Below are positions 7,774 to 15,120 of a DNA stretch of 20,000 nt, piece by piece. The stretch lies in the IMG/VR virus record IMGVR_UViG_3300014773_000001, one strand, 5' to 3'. A program made the position numbers and the translations under genes. The stretch is from an uncultured virus (IMG/VR IMGVR_UViG_3300014773_000001). Its lineage: Duplodnaviria > Heunggongvirae > Uroviricota > Caudoviricetes. The notes below the pieces were generated by a model. It saw only the letters and a list, made by a program, of their open reading frames with translations, did not search any database and was not told the DNA's origin. Each line of letters starts with the position of its first letter. Within the stretch, counting starts at the first letter, position 1.

Positions 7774-8211
7774 TCAGGCCGGCTCCTCGTCCGCGATGCC
7801 GAGGTCCTGGCGGGCCGCTCGGATGTAGGCGACCTTGGCGTCCCTCCAGGCCGGACCAGGGTCCCCGCCTTGGCGCATGACGGCGCTGGCATCGATGGCA
7901 GCGGTCGCGTATGTCCCGGCCGCCGCGGCTACGGCAGGCCCGAGGATCTGGACCTGACCGAGCGAGGTGTGCAGGCTCGCCAGGAGCAGGGCGAACTCCT
8001 GGTCCCGCGCGGGTGCCCCAGCCATCAGGGAGTCCGCCCTGGCGACGTGCTGCGCGTAGACCTCCCGCTTCGCATCGAGCCAGCGCGTAGCCTGGTCTCT
8101 CTCCCATCGCTCGCGCTCGCTGCGGCGCGTCAAGCTCCACGTGACGAGCGAGCCGACGACGCCGCCCGCGATGGTGCCAACGACGGTGACCAGGGTGCTG
8201 ATGTCGCTCAT
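7774..8211 (-). CDS. N-terminally membrane-anchored hypothetical protein (145 aa), moron-like
   Basis: Hydrophobic LVTVVGTIAGGVVGSLVTW followed by a charged helix (RRSERERWERDQ...KREVYA). GC-rich third codon positions on the minus strand. It is the only credible minus-strand gene in the window. Confidence 0.75.
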   Translation of the reverse strand: MSDISTLVTVVGTIAGGVVGSLVTWSLTRRSERERWERDQATRWLDAKREVYAQHVARADSLMAGAPARDQEFALLLASLHTSLGQVQILGPAVAAAAGTYATAAIDASAVMRQGGDPGPAWRDAKVAYIRAARQDLGIADEEPA

Positions 8212-8218
8212 GGCGGGC

Positions 8219-8227
8219 ATCATCGCA
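8219..8227 (-). promoter_or_regulatory. Possible extended -10 promoter for a leaderless transcript
   Basis: Minus strand reads TG-C-GATGAT, then 7 nt, then ATG at 8211. No Shine-Dalgarno sequence. Confidence 0.35.
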
Positions 8228-8264
8228 GCGCTGTCACGCCAACCGGGCTTCCGGGGGGTGCGGG

Positions 8265-8618
8265 ATGCCTCGCCTGATGTCGGTCGGCCTCACCGAGCAG
8301 GCCGTGGTCGAGCGCCGCAAGACGGTCACGCGCCGTCTCGGCTGGCTCCACCTCAAGCCCGGTGACCGCCTGACGCTGGTCCGCAAGAGCATGGGCCGCA
8401 AGCCCGGCGAGCCGCTCGTCCGGCTGGCCGAGGTCGAGGTGGTCAGCGTGCGCCGCGAGCCGCTGTGGATCATGGAACAGGACGACGTGGCCCGCGAGGG
8501 AGTCCCCTTCCTCGCCCGGGAGATCACCGCTGCCGAGTGGGTCCGCTGGTACTCGGAGCGCATGGGCATCGAGCGGTCCGACCTGGTCACCCGGATCGAG
8601 TGGCGGTACCTGTCGTGA
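8265..8618 (+). CDS. ASCH-domain protein
   Basis: RRKTVTRRLGW..LKPGDRL...VEVVSVRREPL..M..DDVAREG pattern typical of phage ASCH proteins. Confidence 0.8.
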   Translation: MPRLMSVGLTEQAVVERRKTVTRRLGWLHLKPGDRLTLVRKSMGRKPGEPLVRLAEVEVVSVRREPLWIMEQDDVAREGVPFLAREITAAEWVRWYSERMGIERSDLVTRIEWRYLS

Positions 8619-8734
8619 CCGGCCACGAGGAGCGCTGCGGGCACGTGGCGTGGTGGGTCCACCTCGGCGACCGCCGCTGGTGCCTCCGCTGCATCATCCG
8701 GGGCCGCGAGCTGCGCGGATGGAGGCTGTGGTGA
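8615..8734 (+). CDS. Small Cys-rich hypothetical protein (39 aa)
   Basis: GTGA overlaps at both ends. CGH...WCLRC motif. Confidence 0.5.
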   Translation: MTGHEERCGHVAWWVHLGDRRWCLRCIIRGRELRGWRLW

Positions 8735-9048
8735 GCACTCGCTACCACGTCCTCCGCTCCGAGTACTCCCCGACGATGGGGCTGCGCCAGGTCATCCTCA
8801 CCCGACAGGCGTGCCGCCGGAGCAAGGCGATCGACGTGCTCCTCGACGCGGCCCTCGACACGAACAGGCACATGCGCCGCGGCGGACTGGTCGAGGTCCA
8901 GTGGCTGGGCGTCCACTTCTGTGAGTGGACCGACCCGTGGCCCGTCATCCGCTGCCCCGACCCAACGGGCCATATCTACGCCCTCTGGTGGCACGACGAC
9001 CCCACCGCGAGGCTCACCACGCTGCGCCTCGTGGAGCGGACCCGATGA
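8731..9048 (+). CDS. Hypothetical protein (105 aa)
   Basis: GGAGG at 8721-8725, GTG start, and coupled overlaps on both sides. Confidence 0.6.
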   Translation: MSTRYHVLRSEYSPTMGLRQVILTRQACRRSKAIDVLLDAALDTNRHMRRGGLVEVQWLGVHFCEWTDPWPVIRCPDPTGHIYALWWHDDPTARLTTLRLVERTR

Positions 9049-9575
9049 CGCACCACGAGATCGCCCTTGGCTGCGTGCTCTCTCCGCGGACGCTGCCATG
9101 GAGTCGCGGGGAATGCGTGTGGTGCGCCGGAGCGCTCCCCGGGCGCCGGCTCCGCTGGTGCGGGAAGCCGTGCATCGACGCGTACCAGCTCAACCACGAG
9201 TGGAGCGCGGCCCGCCTTCATGCCGTGATCCGCGCCAGCTTCCGCCCCGCCGAGGGTTGGACCGTCTGGACCTACTGCGACCAGTGCGGGAAGCGCACAT
9301 CGGCTCCCGAGGTCAACCACGTCGACCCCCGTCGCGGCCGCGGCTACGACCCCGGGTGCTGGAACCACCAGACGAACCTGCAGGTCCTCTGCCACGCCTG
9401 CCACGTCGCCGAGACGAACCAGCAGCGCCGCGCGCGCACCGCCAGGGTCGTCGTCGGGACGGAGTCGATCTGGGCGCCCGCGTCGCGGCCCGAGCGACCC
9501 GTGGTGATCCCCGTGCTCTCCGGTGATGCCGCCATGCGCGATCGGCTCGCCTCGCTCCTCGGGGGCCGGCGATGA
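9045..9575 (+). CDS. HNH endonuclease with N-terminal Zn-finger (176 aa)
   Basis: CVWC...WCGKPC, then CDQCG...EVNHVDP...NHQTNLQVLCHACH. Confidence 0.85.
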   Translation: MTHHEIALGCVLSPRTLPWSRGECVWCAGALPGRRLRWCGKPCIDAYQLNHEWSAARLHAVIRASFRPAEGWTVWTYCDQCGKRTSAPEVNHVDPRRGRGYDPGCWNHQTNLQVLCHACHVAETNQQRRARTARVVVGTESIWAPASRPERPVVIPVLSGDAAMRDRLASLLGGRR

Positions 9576-9826
9576 GTCGGCTCGTGATGGACTGGGAGCT
9601 CGACTACGGGGATCCACCCACCGAGGGCGACATCCTCCAGGTGCTCCGCCGCCGCGACCTGCAGCCGAACGGGACGCTGTACCTGGTCACGCACTGGCGC
9701 GTCGTCGTCCAGCGCGACCCGCTCCCGGGCGTGATCCGTCTCGCCCTCATCGTCGAGCGCTGCGATGGCACCGACCTCGACCAGCCGGGCCTGCGGGTGC
9801 TGCAGATGACGTGGAGCCCGCGATGA
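9572..9826 (+). CDS. Hypothetical protein (84 aa)
   Basis: ATGA overlaps at both ends. GC-rich third codon positions. Confidence 0.65.
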   Translation: MSRLVMDWELDYGDPPTEGDILQVLRRRDLQPNGTLYLVTHWRVVVQRDPLPGVIRLALIVERCDGTDLDQPGLRVLQMTWSPR

Positions 9827-11109
9827 CCCCGGTGAGCGCGGCCGTGGCGGAGCGGATCACCGAGCTCCGCGCCGGGGGAGCCAGCATCGCCGGCATCGCG
9901 TCGAGCGTGCGCCGGTCCGAGGCGACGGTGAAGCGCGTCCTCGCCGGTGGCGCCACCGAGGACTGGGCGCCGGCGTGCATGGAGGCCGACGAGTGGACGA
10001 GCTGGCAGGCTCTGAACCGCCGGCCATCCTCGGCCTCCGAGTTCCACCGACCCTGCCAGGACTGCCCGCTCGGGTTCGCCCTCGAGCAGCGTGGCCTCGG
10101 CCGCTGCAACGGCGTCCCCATGGGAGCCGAGGTCGATGACGACCCCGAGGTGGACGCCAGGTTCGTCGAGCGCGAGGTCCTGCCGCCGCCGAAGGTGCTC
10201 CAGCTCCTCGTCGATGCCGTGCGCGTCGAGGACCGTCGTCCGGGGCCGCCGCCGGGCGCGTCACCCCTCTCCACCCTGGTCGTCCCGGATGTCGTGGCCG
10301 ACCCGTTGCCCCAGCCGGACCCACCCGGCACCCCCGTCGATGCCTTCGCCGTCGTCGACCACGCCCGCACCGTGGGCTTCGCCCGCGCAGTCCCCCCAGC
10401 ACCGGAGGAAGGACCCATGCCGCTCACCATCAAGGACCCCAGCGAGGGTCGAGCCCTGGCGGCCCGTCTCGTCGGGGAGATCGCCGGCCGAGCCACGACC
10501 GGGCCGAAGCCGCGGGTGCACGCCTGCTCCGAGTGCGGCGAACCCTTCACCCCCCGCGACTCCGGACGCCCTCAGGTCACCTGCTCCCCCGAGTGCCAGA
10601 AGCGGCGGGAGAAGCGTCGCGAGCGGGAGCAGCGGAGGTCGAAGGGCGCGCCGCGCTCGGTCGTCGCCGAAGCACCGAGCAGACCGAAGCCGACGCAGGA
10701 GCCCATCGAGACCTTGGGGACCGAGGCCTGGGACGCGCTCGCCGACGAGATGGCGGACCCGGGTGTCGCACTGCCGGGAGAGCCCTCGCTGGACGAGATC
10801 CGGGCCAACTACGAGCGACGCGTCATCACCCGGGAGGCAGCCGAGGAGCTGTTCTCGGTACCGAGCCTCCAGGCCGAGGTCGCTGGGGCCGTCTTCGGTG
10901 CCGCCGCCGCTGCCGACAGGGAGGAGCTCGGAGCAGCGTTCCGGCGGCGCGCCCATGAGGCCGACGACATCCGCGCCTTCCTCATGCGCGACCTCATCGC
11001 GGCAGCCGAGGCCGACCTCCGCACGGCCAACGAGCGTGCCGAGCACGCCCATGCCACGCTGGCCTGGCTCAAGCAGCGGGCCACGGAGTCCGGGGAGGTC
11101 TGGTCATGA
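9823..11109 (+). CDS. Multidomain protein: N-terminal HTH, 4-Cys cluster, Pro-rich linker, Zn-ribbon and coiled coil (428 aa)
   Basis: GASIAGIASSVRRSEATVKRVL HTH-like segment. C...CQDCP...C and CSECGEPF...TCSPEC motifs. ATGA overlaps at both ends. Confidence 0.65.
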   Translation: MTPVSAAVAERITELRAGGASIAGIASSVRRSEATVKRVLAGGATEDWAPACMEADEWTSWQALNRRPSSASEFHRPCQDCPLGFALEQRGLGRCNGVPMGAEVDDDPEVDARFVEREVLPPPKVLQLLVDAVRVEDRRPGPPPGASPLSTLVVPDVVADPLPQPDPPGTPVDAFAVVDHARTVGFARAVPPAPEEGPMPLTIKDPSEGRALAARLVGEIAGRATTGPKPRVHACSECGEPFTPRDSGRPQVTCSPECQKRREKRREREQRRSKGAPRSVVAEAPSRPKPTQEPIETLGTEAWDALADEMADPGVALPGEPSLDEIRANYERRVITREAAEELFSVPSLQAEVAGAVFGAAAAADREELGAAFRRRAHEADDIRAFLMRDLIAAAEADLRTANERAEHAHATLAWLKQRATESGEVWS

Positions 11110-11522
11110 TCGAGGCTCGACCGCGCCCGACCCCGCTGGGCCCACCCAAAGTGGTCACCGACCTCGCCTGCCCCGACGACTGCCCGCTCTGCGAGGCCCT
11201 GTACGACCTCGTCGCCTCGGCCGTGGAGAACCGTGCCAAGCGCGGCGTCGACATCGAGACCGGTCGCGCTACCCTGACCGTCATCGAGGGAACCGGCATC
11301 GAGGGAGGTCAGGGCGGTGGAGATCAAGGCGGTGCACATCCGACGACTGGGCGTCTGCTACGTGGAGGAGATGGAGGTCCCATCCGGCCCCGGCGCCGCT
11401 TGGTTGCCGCTGCCGATGGGGACGGACCCAGCGACGCTGGCGATGCCGGAGTCGTGGCACTTCCCGGGGGACTGCCCGGATCCGAGCAAGGCCGTCGTGG
11501 CCGGCGAGGAGGGACGCGGTGA
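11106..11522 (+). CDS. Hypothetical protein (CPDDCPLC motif); 3' half overlaps the next gene
   Basis: ATGA-coupled start. Coding-like codon bias holds only to about 11315. Confidence 0.5.
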   Translation: MIEARPRPTPLGPPKVVTDLACPDDCPLCEALYDLVASAVENRAKRGVDIETGRATLTVIEGTGIEGGQGGGDQGGAHPTTGRLLRGGDGGPIRPRRRLVAAADGDGPSDAGDAGVVALPGGLPGSEQGRRGRRGGTR

Positions 11523-11526
11523 CTGA
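11317..11526 (+). CDS. Hypothetical protein (69 aa)
   Basis: GGAGG at 11304-11308 is 8 nt before GTG. Strongly G/C-ending codons. Confidence 0.6.
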   Translation: MEIKAVHIRRLGVCYVEEMEVPSGPGAAWLPLPMGTDPATLAMPESWHFPGDCPDPSKAVVAGEEGRGD

Positions 11527-11556
11527 GCGCCACCCTGCTCGGGAGCGACCGGTCCG

Positions 11557-11820
11557 ATGACCAGCGACGAGCGATGGACTCGCTGGGTACGCGCCGGCCT
11601 TCGTGAGCGACGGATCCCGGCTGAGGCGAGCCTGACGATCAGGATCGAACCATCCAGGACCTGGCTCATCGACGAACTCAGCCTGACCCTCGCCTGGAAC
11701 GACCGTCGTGGTGTCCCCCGCCGGCTGACGATCACGGAGCCCTACGGGGTGCTCCGGGGAGGCTGGCATGGGTGGGTCGCCTACCGCGCCGGAGCCCGGA
11801 TGCTCAGGGCACTGGGATGA
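11557..11820 (+). CDS. Hypothetical protein (87 aa)
   Basis: Fills the gap between neighbours and has an ATGA overlap with the next gene. Confidence 0.55.
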   Translation: MTSDERWTRWVRAGLRERRIPAEASLTIRIEPSRTWLIDELSLTLAWNDRRGVPRRLTITEPYGVLRGGWHGWVAYRAGARMLRALG

Positions 11821-12113
11821 GCGATCCCCGGTTCGCCGCATGGCTGGCACTCCAGGATGCCCGATCGGTGCTGGCCAGCGCCCTGACGGGGCTTCTCGTC
11901 CTCCGTGCCATCGCAACGCTCACTCCGCTCGCCGGCCGTGGGCTCCCCCAGCCGCCCGCCAGCGGGATCCACCGCGGCGCGTTCGATGAGATCGCCCACC
12001 TCGACAGCACCGGGGTGTACCGGGAGACGCGGTGGTCCGTCCGGGGCCGGATGCATCTGCGCTGCGAGGCGAGTGGATGGCCCGGAGGGCACGTCGACGG
12101 AGGTGGGAGATGA
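11817..12113 (+). CDS. Hypothetical protein (98 aa)
   Basis: ATGA overlaps at both ends. Confidence 0.5.
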   Translation: MSDPRFAAWLALQDARSVLASALTGLLVLRAIATLTPLAGRGLPQPPASGIHRGAFDEIAHLDSTGVYRETRWSVRGRMHLRCEASGWPGGHVDGGGR

Positions 12114-13684
12114 GACGCCTCCCGCGCTCTACCCGCGACCTGCACGGGCTCCGCGCCCGCCGCTACATCCGCGTCAGCTCCGAGGAGCAGGGGTGGAAGT
12201 ACGGCCCCGAGGGTCAGCACCTCACCGTCGACGAGGTCGTCGCCCGCCATGGATTGGTCGAGGTGGGCGAGCCCTTCGTGGATGAGCAGTCGGCATGGCA
12301 GGACAGCGAGTCCCGGCCGGAGCTGCAGCGCCTCGTCAGGGAAGCCCGGGACGGTGGCTTCGACGTCCTCGTCGTGCCCTACTTCAGCCGCTGGAGCCGC
12401 GATGCCGAGGTCGCCCTCCGCCTGCGCCGCGCCCTCCATGCCGACGGCGTGGCCATCCTCTTCGCCGACGAGGACTTCGTCTCGTCCGACGAGACCGCGC
12501 TGGAGCGCTACCTCGACGAGGCCGTGGCCTCCGAGAAGTTCAGCCTCCGTCTCTCCCGGACGATCCGCAAGACCATGGCGGCCAAGTTCGAGCGCTTCGG
12601 CGACCAAGGCGGGAGCCCCGGCCTCGGCTTCATCCGCACACCGCAGCCGGAGGCACGCCTCGCCATCGACCCCGAGACGATGCCCAGGGTGGTCGCGATC
12701 TACGAGCGCTACGCCCAGGGTGACGTCTCGTATGGCGACGTCGCCCGCATCTTCGGGATGGAGGTCGGTGGGGTCCGGGCGATCCTGTGCAACCGCCTCT
12801 ACAACGGCTGGGCCGTGCGGCATCGGAGGCGGGAGGACGAGGTGCGCGTACCGGCACCATGGCGGACCCACCCTCCGGTGAGCGACGAGCTGTGGCAGCG
12901 CGTGGCCGACATCCGCGCCCGTCGCAACACCAGCTCGGGTCGGCAGCCCGCGAAGCGCGACCACCTGCTGGCCAAGCGGCTGTGGTGCACCTGCGGTCGG
13001 GCCGTTCGCGCGGCGACCCACCAGGGACGGAACGGGCGGGAGCAGCGCCGGTATCGCCACGATGACTGCGACCGCTGGACCCAGCGGACCCGGCTGGCAT
13101 CGACGTTCGACGATGCCATCTCGGCCCAGCTGTCAGGGATCCGGGCTGACCGGGCGAGCATCACGAGGATCTCCGCCCGGGGTGGCAGCACTGCCCCGGT
13201 GGACACCGAGCTGCGGCGACGGGCGCTCGAGCGGGAGTTGGCGCGGAAGGCGACCGAGCATGCGGCGCGACGGATCACCACCGAGGCCTACCTGGCCGAG
13301 CACGCGCGCATCTCCGCCGAGATCGATGGGCTGGCAGCGGAGCCGCCGGTGCGGTCGATGGCCGACCCGGACGCGATGGCTGCGGAGCTGCTGGCCATCC
13401 GGGATGCGTGGCTCGACGCTGACGAGGCGCAGCGGGCCCGGCTGGTGACCAGGGTGTACGAGCGGATCGTCGTCGAGGACGACCGCTTCGTCCAGGTGGA
13501 GCTGACCGAGCACGCGATCCGCCACGGCCTATTGTGGGCACTCCCGGAGGAGGTCGAGTTGTCAATGGCGCGCCCGGCGAGAGGCGGGCACGCGCTAGCC
13601 ACACCGATCCGACGCACCGTGCGGATGCCCCTCGCGGGCAGGAAGGAATGGCTCCGGGCCACACGCGCTGAGCGATCGGCATGA
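12110..13684 (+). CDS. int: Large serine recombinase (integrase), 524 aa
   Basis: GGAGG ribosome-binding site. Catalytic YIRVSSEEQ, RPELQRL...FDVLVV..FSRWSRD, recombinase domain (ILCNRLYNG, HPPVSDELW), Zn-ribbon CTCG...HDDC and a coiled coil. Confidence 0.93.
   Translation: MRRLPRSTRDLHGLRARRYIRVSSEEQGWKYGPEGQHLTVDEVVARHGLVEVGEPFVDEQSAWQDSESRPELQRLVREARDGGFDVLVVPYFSRWSRDAEVALRLRRALHADGVAILFADEDFVSSDETALERYLDEAVASEKFSLRLSRTIRKTMAAKFERFGDQGGSPGLGFIRTPQPEARLAIDPETMPRVVAIYERYAQGDVSYGDVARIFGMEVGGVRAILCNRLYNGWAVRHRRREDEVRVPAPWRTHPPVSDELWQRVADIRARRNTSSGRQPAKRDHLLAKRLWCTCGRAVRAATHQGRNGREQRRYRHDDCDRWTQRTRLASTFDDAISAQLSGIRADRASITRISARGGSTAPVDTELRRRALERELARKATEHAARRITTEAYLAEHARISAEIDGLAAEPPVRSMADPDAMAAELLAIRDAWLDADEAQRARLVTRVYERIVVEDDRFVQVELTEHAIRHGLLWALPEEVELSMARPARGGHALATPIRRTVRMPLAGRKEWLRATRAERSA
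13566..13582 (-). other. Putative attP core: tRNA-Arg-like 3' end fragment inside int
   Basis: Minus strand TCTCGCCGGGCGCGCCA parses as T60, T-stem 3' strand CTCGC, acceptor 3' strand CGGGCGC, discriminator G and CCA. The T-loop and the rest of the tRNA are absent. Confidence 0.62.
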
Positions 13685-14181
13685 GCCGCCGGGGACGCCG
13701 CTTCGCCGACGCTCCGACCTCGGCGGAGCGAGCTGCGCTGATGGCGGTCTGCCAGCCCGGCGTGAACGAGGCGCTCGCGGCGCGCCACCTCGGCATCACC
13801 GAGGCCGCCCTGCGGTCGCGCCTCCGCAGCCTGTACGGCCGACTTGGGGTCAACAGCGCGGCGCAGGCCTTCCACGCGATCGACCCTCTCCGCGATCACT
13901 TCGACCGCTTCCTGGCCGAGTACATCGCGCACCGGAATGACCCGCACCCGACCTCGCTGTACCGCTACTTCGACGAGCGGGGACGCCTCATGTACGTCGG
14001 GATCACCTCTGGAGGCGGGCGACGAGCTGACCAGCACCAGGCGTCAGCGCCGTGGTGGACAGAGGTGCGCACGGCCACGATCGAGCACTACCCCGACCGA
14101 CGGTCCGCCCTGACAGCAGAGTCCATCGCCATCACCGCGGAAGCCCCGATACACAACCGGGCAGGGGCGCCGAAGCGATGA
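13681..14181 (+). CDS. LuxR-type HTH fused to GIY-YIG nuclease-like domain (166 aa)
   Basis: ARHLGITEAALRSRLRSLYGRLGVNS (LuxR C-terminal HTH). LYRYFD..GRLMYVGIT....R..QH...WW...AE..AI..EAPIHN (GIY-YIG). Confidence 0.82.
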   Translation: MSRRGRRFADAPTSAERAALMAVCQPGVNEALAARHLGITEAALRSRLRSLYGRLGVNSAAQAFHAIDPLRDHFDRFLAEYIAHRNDPHPTSLYRYFDERGRLMYVGITSGGGRRADQHQASAPWWTEVRTATIEHYPDRRSALTAESIAITAEAPIHNRAGAPKR

Positions 14182-14441
14182 GCGACCGGCGTCCCACCGC
14201 CCGGGAGCTCCAGGTGCTCGAGCTGCTGGAGCTCCCCTATGCGTCCGCGACCTCTGTCGCCGATGCCCTCGGGATCAGCCCGAGGACCGTCAACGCCCAC
14301 CTCGCCAGCCTGTACGGGAAGCTCGGAGTGAGCAGCGCATTGCAGGCCCGAGCGGCCCTCGACCGGGCAGAAATCAGAGGGCGCCGGCGGGATCGTCAGA
14401 AATACCTAGATCCGCGCTCGACCGTTGCGGGAAATACCTAG
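14178..14441 (+). CDS. Stand-alone LuxR-type HTH regulator (87 aa)
   Basis: PTARELQVLELL...VADALGISPRTVNAHLASLYGKLGVSS. ATGA-coupled start. Confidence 0.88.
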   Translation: MSDRRPTARELQVLELLELPYASATSVADALGISPRTVNAHLASLYGKLGVSSALQARAALDRAEIRGRRRDRQKYLDPRSTVAGNT

Positions 14442-14442
14442 A
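14399..14442 (+). repeat. 12-bp direct repeat GAAATACCTAGA x2, 32-bp period
   Basis: Exact copies at 14399-14410 and 14431-14442, AT-rich in a GC-rich context. Confidence 0.85.
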
Positions 14443-14465
14443 CCGATTCCGGCCCTATCGCCCCA

Positions 14466-14494
14466 CGGGACGCTCGCGGGTGGCTACCGTCCCG
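14466..14494 (+). promoter_or_regulatory. Candidate late promoter -10 (TACCGT) within a 7-bp inverted repeat
   Basis: TANNNT at 14485-14490, 21 nt before the tRNA. Inverted repeat CGGGACG (14466-14472) / CGTCCCG (14488-14494). Confidence 0.4.
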
Positions 14495-14511
14495 CCCCGT
14501 GATCGATCCAC

Positions 14512-14586
14512 AGCGGGCTAGCTCAGCGGCGGAGCGCCGGGTTCATACCCCGGAGGCCACGGGTTCGAGTCCCGTGCCCGCAACCA
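14512..14586 (+). tRNA. tRNA-Met(CAT), initiator-like
   Basis: Full cloverleaf: acceptor AGCGGGC/GCCCGCA, D-stem GCTC/GAGC, anticodon stem CCGGG/CCCGG with loop TT-CAT-AC, T-arm ACGGG-TTCGAGT-CCCGT, discriminator A and encoded CCA. Confidence 0.95.
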
Positions 14587-14615
14587 CGCTCGACGCCCTG
14601 ATCCCGTGACGCCCG

Positions 14616-14903
14616 ATGGATCTCTCCTGGGCCAAAGCGCTCATCGATGCGGGCGGATGGGTGTTCGCTGCGGCCGTGATCGGCACCGTGCTGGGGCTGG
14701 TCATCCGCGGCGATCTGGTCCCGGGGAAGGTGGCCGAGGCGCAGGGGAAGCGGCTCGACGCGCTCGAGCGCTCGCTCCGCGACGACGTGGTCCCGGTGCT
14801 CCGCGAGGTCGGCAAGGGGACGACACAGGCCGGCGTGGTGCTCGACTTCCTGAGCGATTTCGTGCGGGAGGTCGCGCGTGACCGCCGGGGCGAGGGCCAG
14901 TGA
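14616..14903 (+). CDS. Single-pass membrane protein with coiled coil (lysis-cassette associated)
   Basis: Hydrophobic GGWVFAAAVIGTVLGLVI followed by RGDLVP and a charged helical tail. Confidence 0.7.
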   Translation: MDLSWAKALIDAGGWVFAAAVIGTVLGLVIRGDLVPGKVAEAQGKRLDALERSLRDDVVPVLREVGKGTTQAGVVLDFLSDFVREVARDRRGEGQ

Positions 14904-14904
14904 G

Positions 14905-15120
14905 ATGGGCGTCCTCGCCCGCCTCCGTCAGCGGATCAGCGACCGCCTCGGCATCACCGCCGCTGAGAGCGCCGTCGAGCGGACGATGGAGGTGACCGCC
15001 GAGGTCCACCGGGCCGCGACCGAGACCGTCCGAAGCATCCGCGCCGGTCGCCTCCGCATGGGTCGCAAGGACTGGCCACGCCAGTACGCCGACCGCCTGC
15101 GCGACCGGGTGGAACCGTGA
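14905..15120 (+). CDS. Hypothetical protein (71 aa)
   Basis: ATG 1 nt after the previous stop. GTGA overlap with the next gene. Confidence 0.6.
   Translation: MGVLARLRQRISDRLGITAAESAVERTMEVTAEVHRAATETVRSIRAGRLRMGRKDWPRQYADRLRDRVEP

Follow-up and report, generated by a model that had tools for sequence, protein, structure and literature searches.

The closest described systems include the DsiB recombinase of Dehalococcoides. The excerpts of the report by McMurdie et al. (2011, PMC3146451) state that in the ssrA islands of Dehalococcoides the 3' end of dsiB always overlaps the left attachment site (attL); the authors suggest in these excerpts that the recombinase may reach full function only while the element is circular and describe the region read off the target as divergent, and an analysis of the tail in the circular form is not part of the excerpted text. 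Here we analyze a stretch of 20,000 nucleotides of DNA from an uncultured virus of the Caudoviricetes (IMG/VR record IMGVR_UViG_3300014773_000001), called the window throughout, in which the gene of a serine integrase (int) contains a copy of a tRNA-Arg 3' end that is very probably its own phage attachment site (attP). As far as the excerpts describe it, DsiB is likewise a Chloroflexota serine recombinase, of about 540 residues, with the 3' end of its gene overlapping its own attachment (att) site, but its target is the transfer-messenger RNA gene ssrA, whereas the window family targets tRNA-Arg, tRNA-Asp and tRNA-Lys genes, and its carriers are mobilizable islands rather than phages, with DsiA as a second, small serine recombinase. 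A search of small Chloroflexota genomes with the window integrase, in which no DsiB sequence was compared, gave matches to the N-terminal domain only (E ~1e-8).

Mx8 Int is a tyrosine recombinase, and the window integrase, with its serine-type catalytic domain, is unrelated to it in att architecture and catalytic mechanism. What the two share is an attP inside int and a C-terminus that is altered by integration: the available text on Mx8 IntP describes an attP within int, a new int 3' end made by integration and an enzyme that is modified, not inactivated (PMC6070905). Genes for tRNAs have so far been regarded as a target for tyrosine integrases only: the excerpts of the Islander paper state that no serine-family integrase is known to specify such a gene, and every case known to its authors has a tyrosine-family integrase (PMC4383910). 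The islands treated in those excerpts resemble the present case in that attP carries a fragment of the target tRNA gene, the tRNA is restored and the displaced fragment stays behind as a direct repeat; they differ in having tyrosine-family integrases, while the window integrase is a serine recombinase.

With the integrases of Bxb1, phiC31 and Listeria LI/A118 (9iu2, 9tep, 4kis, 9dxh) the window integrase shares the predicted fold of residues 7 to 477 (structural Z-scores of 12-16), the order of an N-terminal catalytic domain, a recombinase domain and a zinc ribbon with coiled coil, and an attP dyad of about 50 bp around a non-palindromic dinucleotide. Large serine recombinases cleave with a 2-bp stagger through a phosphoserine linkage and need a directionality factor for excision; no such factor was identified for the window phage. 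Unlike them, it targets a tRNA gene, has a common core of 16-17 bp between attP and the host attachment site (attB), carries attP inside int and has an extra C-terminal hairpin and helix (residues 478-524); identity is about 14 to 18%, and the Pfam Recombinase and Zn_ribbon domains are mostly below threshold in the window family. Our literature search, with subscription journals and supplements outside its scope, found no paper on serine integrases at tRNA genes besides the ssrA case and no description of a Chloroflexota tRNA-Arg serine-integrase phage family. New here is a phage serine integrase that targets tRNA genes with attP in its own gene; the general design was already known. It belongs to a whole family of phage serine integrases at tRNA genes in which natural sequences reveal both att states. 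Serine integrases are workhorses of genome engineering, and a clade whose attB is a conserved tRNA end would supply attP/attB pairs from nature and show how specificity is redirected.

A tRNA-Arg tip within the end of int

The int gene, in its phage (attP) form, occupies positions 12110 to 13684 on the + strand and encodes a large serine recombinase of 524 residues, as judged from Pfam, an AlphaFold model and homologues. The open reading frame (ORF) itself has 550 codons (12032-13684), and the database form of the protein (P0002) begins at Met27 (12110). Within the last 120 nt of this ORF, the + strand at 13566-13582 reads TGGCGCGCCCGGCGAGA. The original prediction had taken this 17-mer for attP, as the antisense of tRNA positions 60 to 76 ending at the T-loop, and called for a host tRNA that ends in it. 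Such a tRNA was found: the reverse complement of 13566-13582 is identical (17/17) to the last 17 nt (60-76) of the 76-nt tRNA-Arg(GCG) genes at L001 and L005, two loci in metagenome-assembled genomes (MAGs) of Chloroflexota. The copy, which lies antisense (- strand) and forms the putative attP/attB common core, comprises T60 of the T-loop, where the identity ends, the T-stem from 61 to 65, the acceptor strand from 66 to 72, G73 and CCA. These direct matches supersede the comparison with E. coli argX made in the original prediction. Neither ARAGORN nor Rfam reports a tRNA at 13566-13582. TGGCGCGCCCGGCGAGA is unique in the window at up to two mismatches, where 0.06 matches are expected (200 shuffles); 11 of the 200 shuffled windows gave at least one such match.

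The in-frame ATG at 13565 is Met486 of the integrase. The original prediction had also proposed that GGAGGAGG, upstream of this ATG, allows a short attP-specific peptide. This idea fails because GGAGGAGG stems from Pro-Glu-Glu codons of the window phage only; it is absent from the other 21 attP-form sites listed, and the attL junctions show no consistent ribosome-binding site.

To compare the site across relatives, we collected 103 homologues by a protein search with the integrase, and an alignment-based scan of one genome per prokaryotic species gave 191 encoding stretches (confirmed by tblastn), of which the best 80 were kept; nearly all of these 80 loci are in Chloroflexota MAGs. Alignment of 43 homologues revealed conservation through ...ALPE-V-(M/L)ARPAG and then two tail classes, so that the break after ARP for which the original prediction had looked is present, followed by either a conserved or a tRNA-antisense tail. 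The phage-type tail has the consensus A-T-V-R-I-P-I-x-G-R-x-E/D-W-L-R-A-A-R-S-A, and the tRNA-antisense class includes GFEPAT..., LELTTF..., RQDSNLRP, ARPAR-LELTAFRSAT and ARPTG-FEPATFGSGGRRSIH. A tail of the form MARPAR-x-ELA had been predicted for the integrated window phage; relatives at the same tRNA read MARPAR-LELT. When 104 proteins were sorted by regular expressions, 31 were tRNA-type, 45 phage-type and 28 unclassified, many of the last being visibly phage-type variants or truncated.

At the DNA level, the int ORF enters a minus-strand tRNA gene in 56 of the best 80 genome loci. The targets are tRNA-Arg in 54 (40 with anticodon CCG, 7 TCG, 3 GCG, 3 TCT and 1 CCT), tRNA-Asp in one and tRNA-Lys in one. 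Eight further genome loci have a phage-type tail by pattern and no tRNA; 11 sites are unclassified by pattern, with frameshifted or truncated tails, partial tRNAs and one divergent phage-type tail (L009); in four loci the ORF runs to the contig end and two lack a C-terminal match. Among 13 viral contigs, 11 have a C-terminal match, 10 in the phage form and one integrated. At 18 of 19 attP-form sites, core nucleotides 4-16 are identical to a tRNA 3' end known from an occupied site, and across the family the core lies at the same codons and co-varies with the target tRNA. In a quick tree of 60 rows, limited to those with a target label and one near-full-length match, phage-form and integrated copies interleave as close relatives; the same elements therefore exist in both states, and the states do not mark subfamilies. 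The target isoacceptor has switched at least 14 times in this tree.

Three features of individual relatives deserve mention. At eight loci (L018, L047, L085, L086 and L090 in the attP form; L017, L024 and L044 integrated) core nucleotides 1-3 are AAG, GAG or TAG, not TGG, and the rebuilt tRNA gene therefore lacks an encoded CCA end. The tRNA-derived core is read in another frame, giving W-R-P-R-Q and not M-A-R-P-A, at L092, L053 and L067 and in the proteins P0084, P0096 and P0097, and the family therefore reads int across its attP in more than one frame. The MAGs of L003, L009, L027 and L031 are labelled Actinomycetota or Dormiibacterota, not Chloroflexota; two of these loci are attP-form contigs, and phage contigs among the four may have been mis-binned.

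Prophage junctions and the predicted crossover

Second copies of the core were sought by pattern search in five host genomes. In G002, two copies lie 42.6 kb apart on one contig as a 17-bp repeat with unrelated flanks on both sides, and beyond the distal copy the frame continues through ARPAGARGPLTTVARIPIVGR...RSA to a stop codon that overlaps the start of the next gene. The interval between them encodes a small terminase, RecE/RecT, an exonuclease and an ImmA-like regulator. The junctions in G003 are on two contigs, with a 21-bp repeat and the tail ORF present, and those in G004 are 65.9 kb apart, with a 17-bp repeat and a decayed tail. In all three relatives an intact tRNA gene and its displaced 3' fragment form direct repeats, and in G002 and G003 attL consists of host flank, core and homologous tail ORF. 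Integrated copies that break elsewhere were a possibility raised with the original prediction; those of G002, G003 and G004 break inside the same core, and together with the tRNA identity and the two tail classes this supports the assignment of the 17-mer as attP. By tblastx, int alone is similar between the window and the 47-kb G002 contig, which therefore represents another phage whose int module is related. The 17-mer recurs exactly at G004:C3:467885-467901 (L098), with no tRNA gene and no tail-like ORF adjoining; it was rejected as an empty attB because it lies outside any tRNA, and it could be a chance occurrence or an old displaced fragment.

Dyad symmetry was then scored in 22 attP-form sites with the centre placed at each of 41 offsets. 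The best centre falls on core nucleotides 15-16 in 19 of the 22 sites, the window included, and the summed score there is 331, whereas the remaining 40 offsets give sums of 101-196; only L036, L086 and the frameshifted first copy of L038 peak elsewhere. For the window this places a predicted attP at 13556-13605, an imperfect dyad with two 24-nt arms around a central dinucleotide, and a predicted crossover at AG 13580-13581, the first two bases of codon Arg491 (C61-U62 of the tRNA). The dyad centre is AG or GG, non-palindromic, across sites. When attP was rebuilt from natural pairs of attL and the right attachment site (attR), 15-17 of 24 positions were symmetric, with the outer motifs ACTGTGGTT(A/T) and (A/T)AACCACAGT. 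In the CCG-targeting clade (CCG clade), attP ceases to match the tRNA at core nucleotide 16 or 17, at this dinucleotide. The end of identity and the dyad centre fit a dinucleotide crossover in which the phage supplies tRNA positions 63-76, and cleavage in the window would occur at AG 13580-13581.

The predicted crossover is flanked in the window by the sequences encoding the two strands of a predicted C-terminal beta-hairpin (13550-13567 and 13607-13624). In typical relatives these strands are encoded by the two complementary outer attP motifs, read as T-V-V and T-T-V, and thus the DNA palindrome maps onto the protein hairpin.

Two other accounts of the 17-mer were weighed against its role as attP. 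It is most improbable that the 17-mer is a chance match or an inert tRNA relic, with the true attP elsewhere or another recombinase doing the integration. GC-rich sequence does raise the frequency of short GC-rich matches, and an exact copy of the 17-mer stands outside any tRNA in G004, but the low number of matches expected in the window, a core at the same codons across the family that co-varies with the target, a dyad centred in that core and direct repeats of integrated relatives formed by the same block all argue against it; in addition, no tyrosine recombinase (PF00589) was found inside the two delimited prophage intervals of G002 and G004, nor any tyrosine recombinase among the window ORFs scanned. 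Somewhat less remote, though still improbable, is that the window spans a chromosomal junction in a tandem array of elements at a tRNA gene, with int abutting the tail fragment of the next element. The excerpts of the DsiB paper raise the same possibility (PMC3146451), and at L038, within a 199-kb MAG contig, two int copies, each with a phage-type tail behind it, are separated by 3.4 kb. Against such an array, replication genes lie upstream and virion and terminase genes downstream of int, the window contains no tRNA-Arg or core repeat, and 10 of the 11 viral-contig relatives with a C-terminal match share the int configuration. Contigs of 4-60 kb from four sequencing runs of one study, which may be the source of the window DNA, all span the att site unbroken and show no joints or loose ends there, contigs being unable to reveal split reads. 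L038 itself (8001-12922) has the appearance of either a tandem array or a minimal satellite-like element; its first int copy has a 1-nt deletion in the P' arm that leads to an early stop.

Several observations weigh against the assignment of the 17-mer as attP and the tail exchange that would follow from it. The comparative data come from MAGs and metagenome contigs throughout, and the four runs contain the attP form only, as contigs. Neither an integrated copy of the window phage nor its host genome turned up: megablast of window positions 11500-15000 against 50,697 phage records gave no match, and a single-protein locus scan of genome contigs gave 121 pattern matches with no true relative among them. 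The int copy of G002 is split across three frames. The window dyad, at 14 of 24 positions, is modest even at this, its best offset, and the reconstructed attB sites are barely symmetric (8-10 of 24). With these points taken into account, the site, the identity of the tRNA and the physical swap of the tail are very probably correct for the window phage.

Proposed exchange of the integrase tail

In the mechanism we propose, the window phage would integrate at tRNA-Arg(GCG). Because attP lies inside the end of int as a copy of the tRNA-Arg tip, insertion would rebuild the tRNA and swap the last 33 residues of Int. Int would bind attP and the host tRNA-Arg(GCG) gene and exchange strands at the dinucleotide equivalent to C61-U62 of the tRNA, the antisense copy of tRNA positions 60-76 (13566-13582) being made up of the centre of attP, its inner left arm and one base beyond. 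The exchange would join the body of int, with the phage copy of tRNA 63-76, to positions 1-60 of the host tRNA, so that the tRNA gene would be rebuilt and int would now read antisense into it. Residues 492-524, encoded by 13583-13684 on the + strand, a segment backed by the attL tail ORFs and by tail conservation, would be replaced by about 10-15 tRNA-encoded residues (LELT...); the original prediction had the count of 33 residues (GGHALA...AERSA) right. L001 and L005 show what the tail would become at tRNA-Arg(GCG): LELTAFRSAT or LELTTFWSATRCSIH. The piece coding for the old tail, with the translationally coupled next gene, would move to the opposite end of the prophage, and excision would restore the full int gene.

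The tail that would be lost is predicted by AlphaFold to form a strand (500-505) and a helix (511-523). Its conserved positions among 52 proteins are I508 (48), G510 (49), R511 (49), W514 (40), A517 (47) and R519 (49). A 4-nt stop/start overlap ([A/G]TGA) joins int to the next gene in 17 of 20 attP or attL tails, and the last Ala of the tail is fixed because the start codon of the next gene overlaps it. An ssrA-like degron in the tail is not supported; the tails end mostly in SA or TA.

What the swap does for the phage is a separate matter. That it regulates the direction, activity or stability of Int is a tentative proposal, and we regard with similar caution the idea that the conserved hairpin-and-helix tail is a built-in sensor of the integration state. 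If it were, only the circular phage genome would encode the full-length Int, which would be integration-competent or differently stable, and only on the circle would int be translationally coupled to the next gene, often a small helix-turn-helix (HTH) protein. The prophage would instead produce a tRNA-tailed Int whose activity, direction or half-life differs, and int expression would no longer reach the coupled gene. The lysogeny switch would then include a rearrangement, by recombination, of the very gene that encodes the recombinase. The integration-dependent immunity of mycobacteriophages follows a similar logic, which would here operate on a serine integrase. The self-rewriting int gene also makes the old suggestion about DsiB directly testable.

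There is roughly an even chance that the site is as described but that the tail swap is a tolerated by-product without regulatory role, the tail being an optional add-on that is conserved because of the DNA of the attP arm, the start codon and ribosome-binding site of the following gene, and the usual demands of folding; we consider this at least as likely as regulation. Solved large serine integrases align with residues 7-477 only, placing the swapped part outside the canonical fold, and the overlap with the next gene's start ties down the last int codons in most tails. In eight attP forms of the CCG clade, the proportion of synonymous differences (pS) is 0.17 in the core and 0.24 in the P' arm, compared with 0.53-0.61 elsewhere, a depression that indicates constraint at the DNA level, as expected of a protein-binding site. 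Eleven more divergent tails, two of them attL remnants, give a weak signal of constraint on the protein (nonsynonymous proportion, pN, 0.43; pS 0.50). An uninterrupted ORF with a tRNA-derived tail is present in 43 of 57 integrated copies, and the tRNA-tailed enzyme is therefore maintained. A tail that is merely tolerated is harder to reconcile with the distal 14 codons, beyond the attP arm, in the same eight CCG-clade forms: with synonymous (dS) and nonsynonymous (dN) rates of 0.91 and 0.13, their dN/dS ratio is 0.14, compared with 0.42 for the int body, in a small sample of non-independent pairs. Also at odds with it are the six tail positions above, kept in 40-49 of 52 proteins at only 37-62% overall identity, and the predicted order of strand and helix (predicted local distance difference test score, pLDDT, 85-95).

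Integrase fold, host phage and neighboring genes

By sequence, the integrase matches the Pfam Resolvase domain (PF00239) at 60.4 bits, above the cut-off of 23.3, as do all 52 relatives. The Recombinase domain (PF07508) reaches 18.2 bits, under its cut-off of 21.1, and is detected in 45 of 52 relatives at E<=0.1, and the Zn_ribbon model (PF13408) matches only four of 52. The methods of Integrase-On-Demand describe a filter on the Pfam Recombinase domain (PMC12884075); since the window integrase scores below the cut-off, pipelines that demand this domain would discard such enzymes. In the 52-sequence alignment the nucleophile serine S23 (RVS motif) and C293, C295 and C320 are invariant, and H317 is present in at least 90%. 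A PDB sequence search reaches the catalytic domain only.

An AlphaFold model built on the 52 relatives has a mean pLDDT of 89.6, and its predicted fold is that of a large serine integrase. Residues 7-472/477 align with complete solved large serine integrases; the best full-length match is 9dxh (Z 16.4), followed by Bxb1 (9iu2, 14.0), the LI integrase (4kis/6dnw, 13.2-13.3) and phiC31 (9tep, 12.3), and the catalytic domain alone gives matches at Z 13-14. Residues 150-470 align with the C-terminal domains of the LI integrase (6dnw Z 13.3, 4kis Z 13.2), and long helices occupy residues 365-449, so that the model contains a predicted recombinase domain and zinc ribbon with an inserted coiled coil, weak as these are by sequence. 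Because the structural alignments stop at about residue 477, residues 478-524 are an extension past the canonical fold, predicted to form a strand (481-486), a loop, a strand (500-505) and a helix (511-523) with pLDDT 67-95.

The window has about 71% G+C, and every clear gene is on the + strand. PHROG and Pfam scans identified a helicase-methylase, a primase, an AAA_25 ATPase, HNH nucleases, the integrase, a LuxR-type regulator, an endonuclease-like protein, a virion structural protein and the large terminase, and the integrase is the single Resolvase-domain ORF among the window ORFs scanned. With int placed between replication and structural genes, the window is part of a temperate phage genome, in the unintegrated configuration; its host is probably a Chloroflexota bacterium.

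Downstream of int, an ORF of 166 residues (13681-14181, +) starts with an ATG that overlaps the int stop codon (ATGA). It matches PHROG endonuclease families (1.5e-16) and, weakly, the Pfam GIY-YIG domain (19.3 bits). Seven of 17 next genes in the family have HTH-type Pfam matches, five of them above the cut-off; a uniform downstream partner was rejected, the others being ParB-methylase, DinB-like or endonuclease-like or without a match. About 830 bp downstream of int lies the sole tRNA gene of the window, a tRNA-Met (CAT) at 14512-14586 (+; ARAGORN; Rfam, 59.3 bits). It is unrelated to the att core, and attP-form relatives have no tRNA at that place. At the other end of the window, the helicase-DNA methylase fusion ORF (1-2199, +) has a third-position G+C content of 0.98, compared with 0.81-0.91 in other window genes, which may reflect recent acquisition or high expression.

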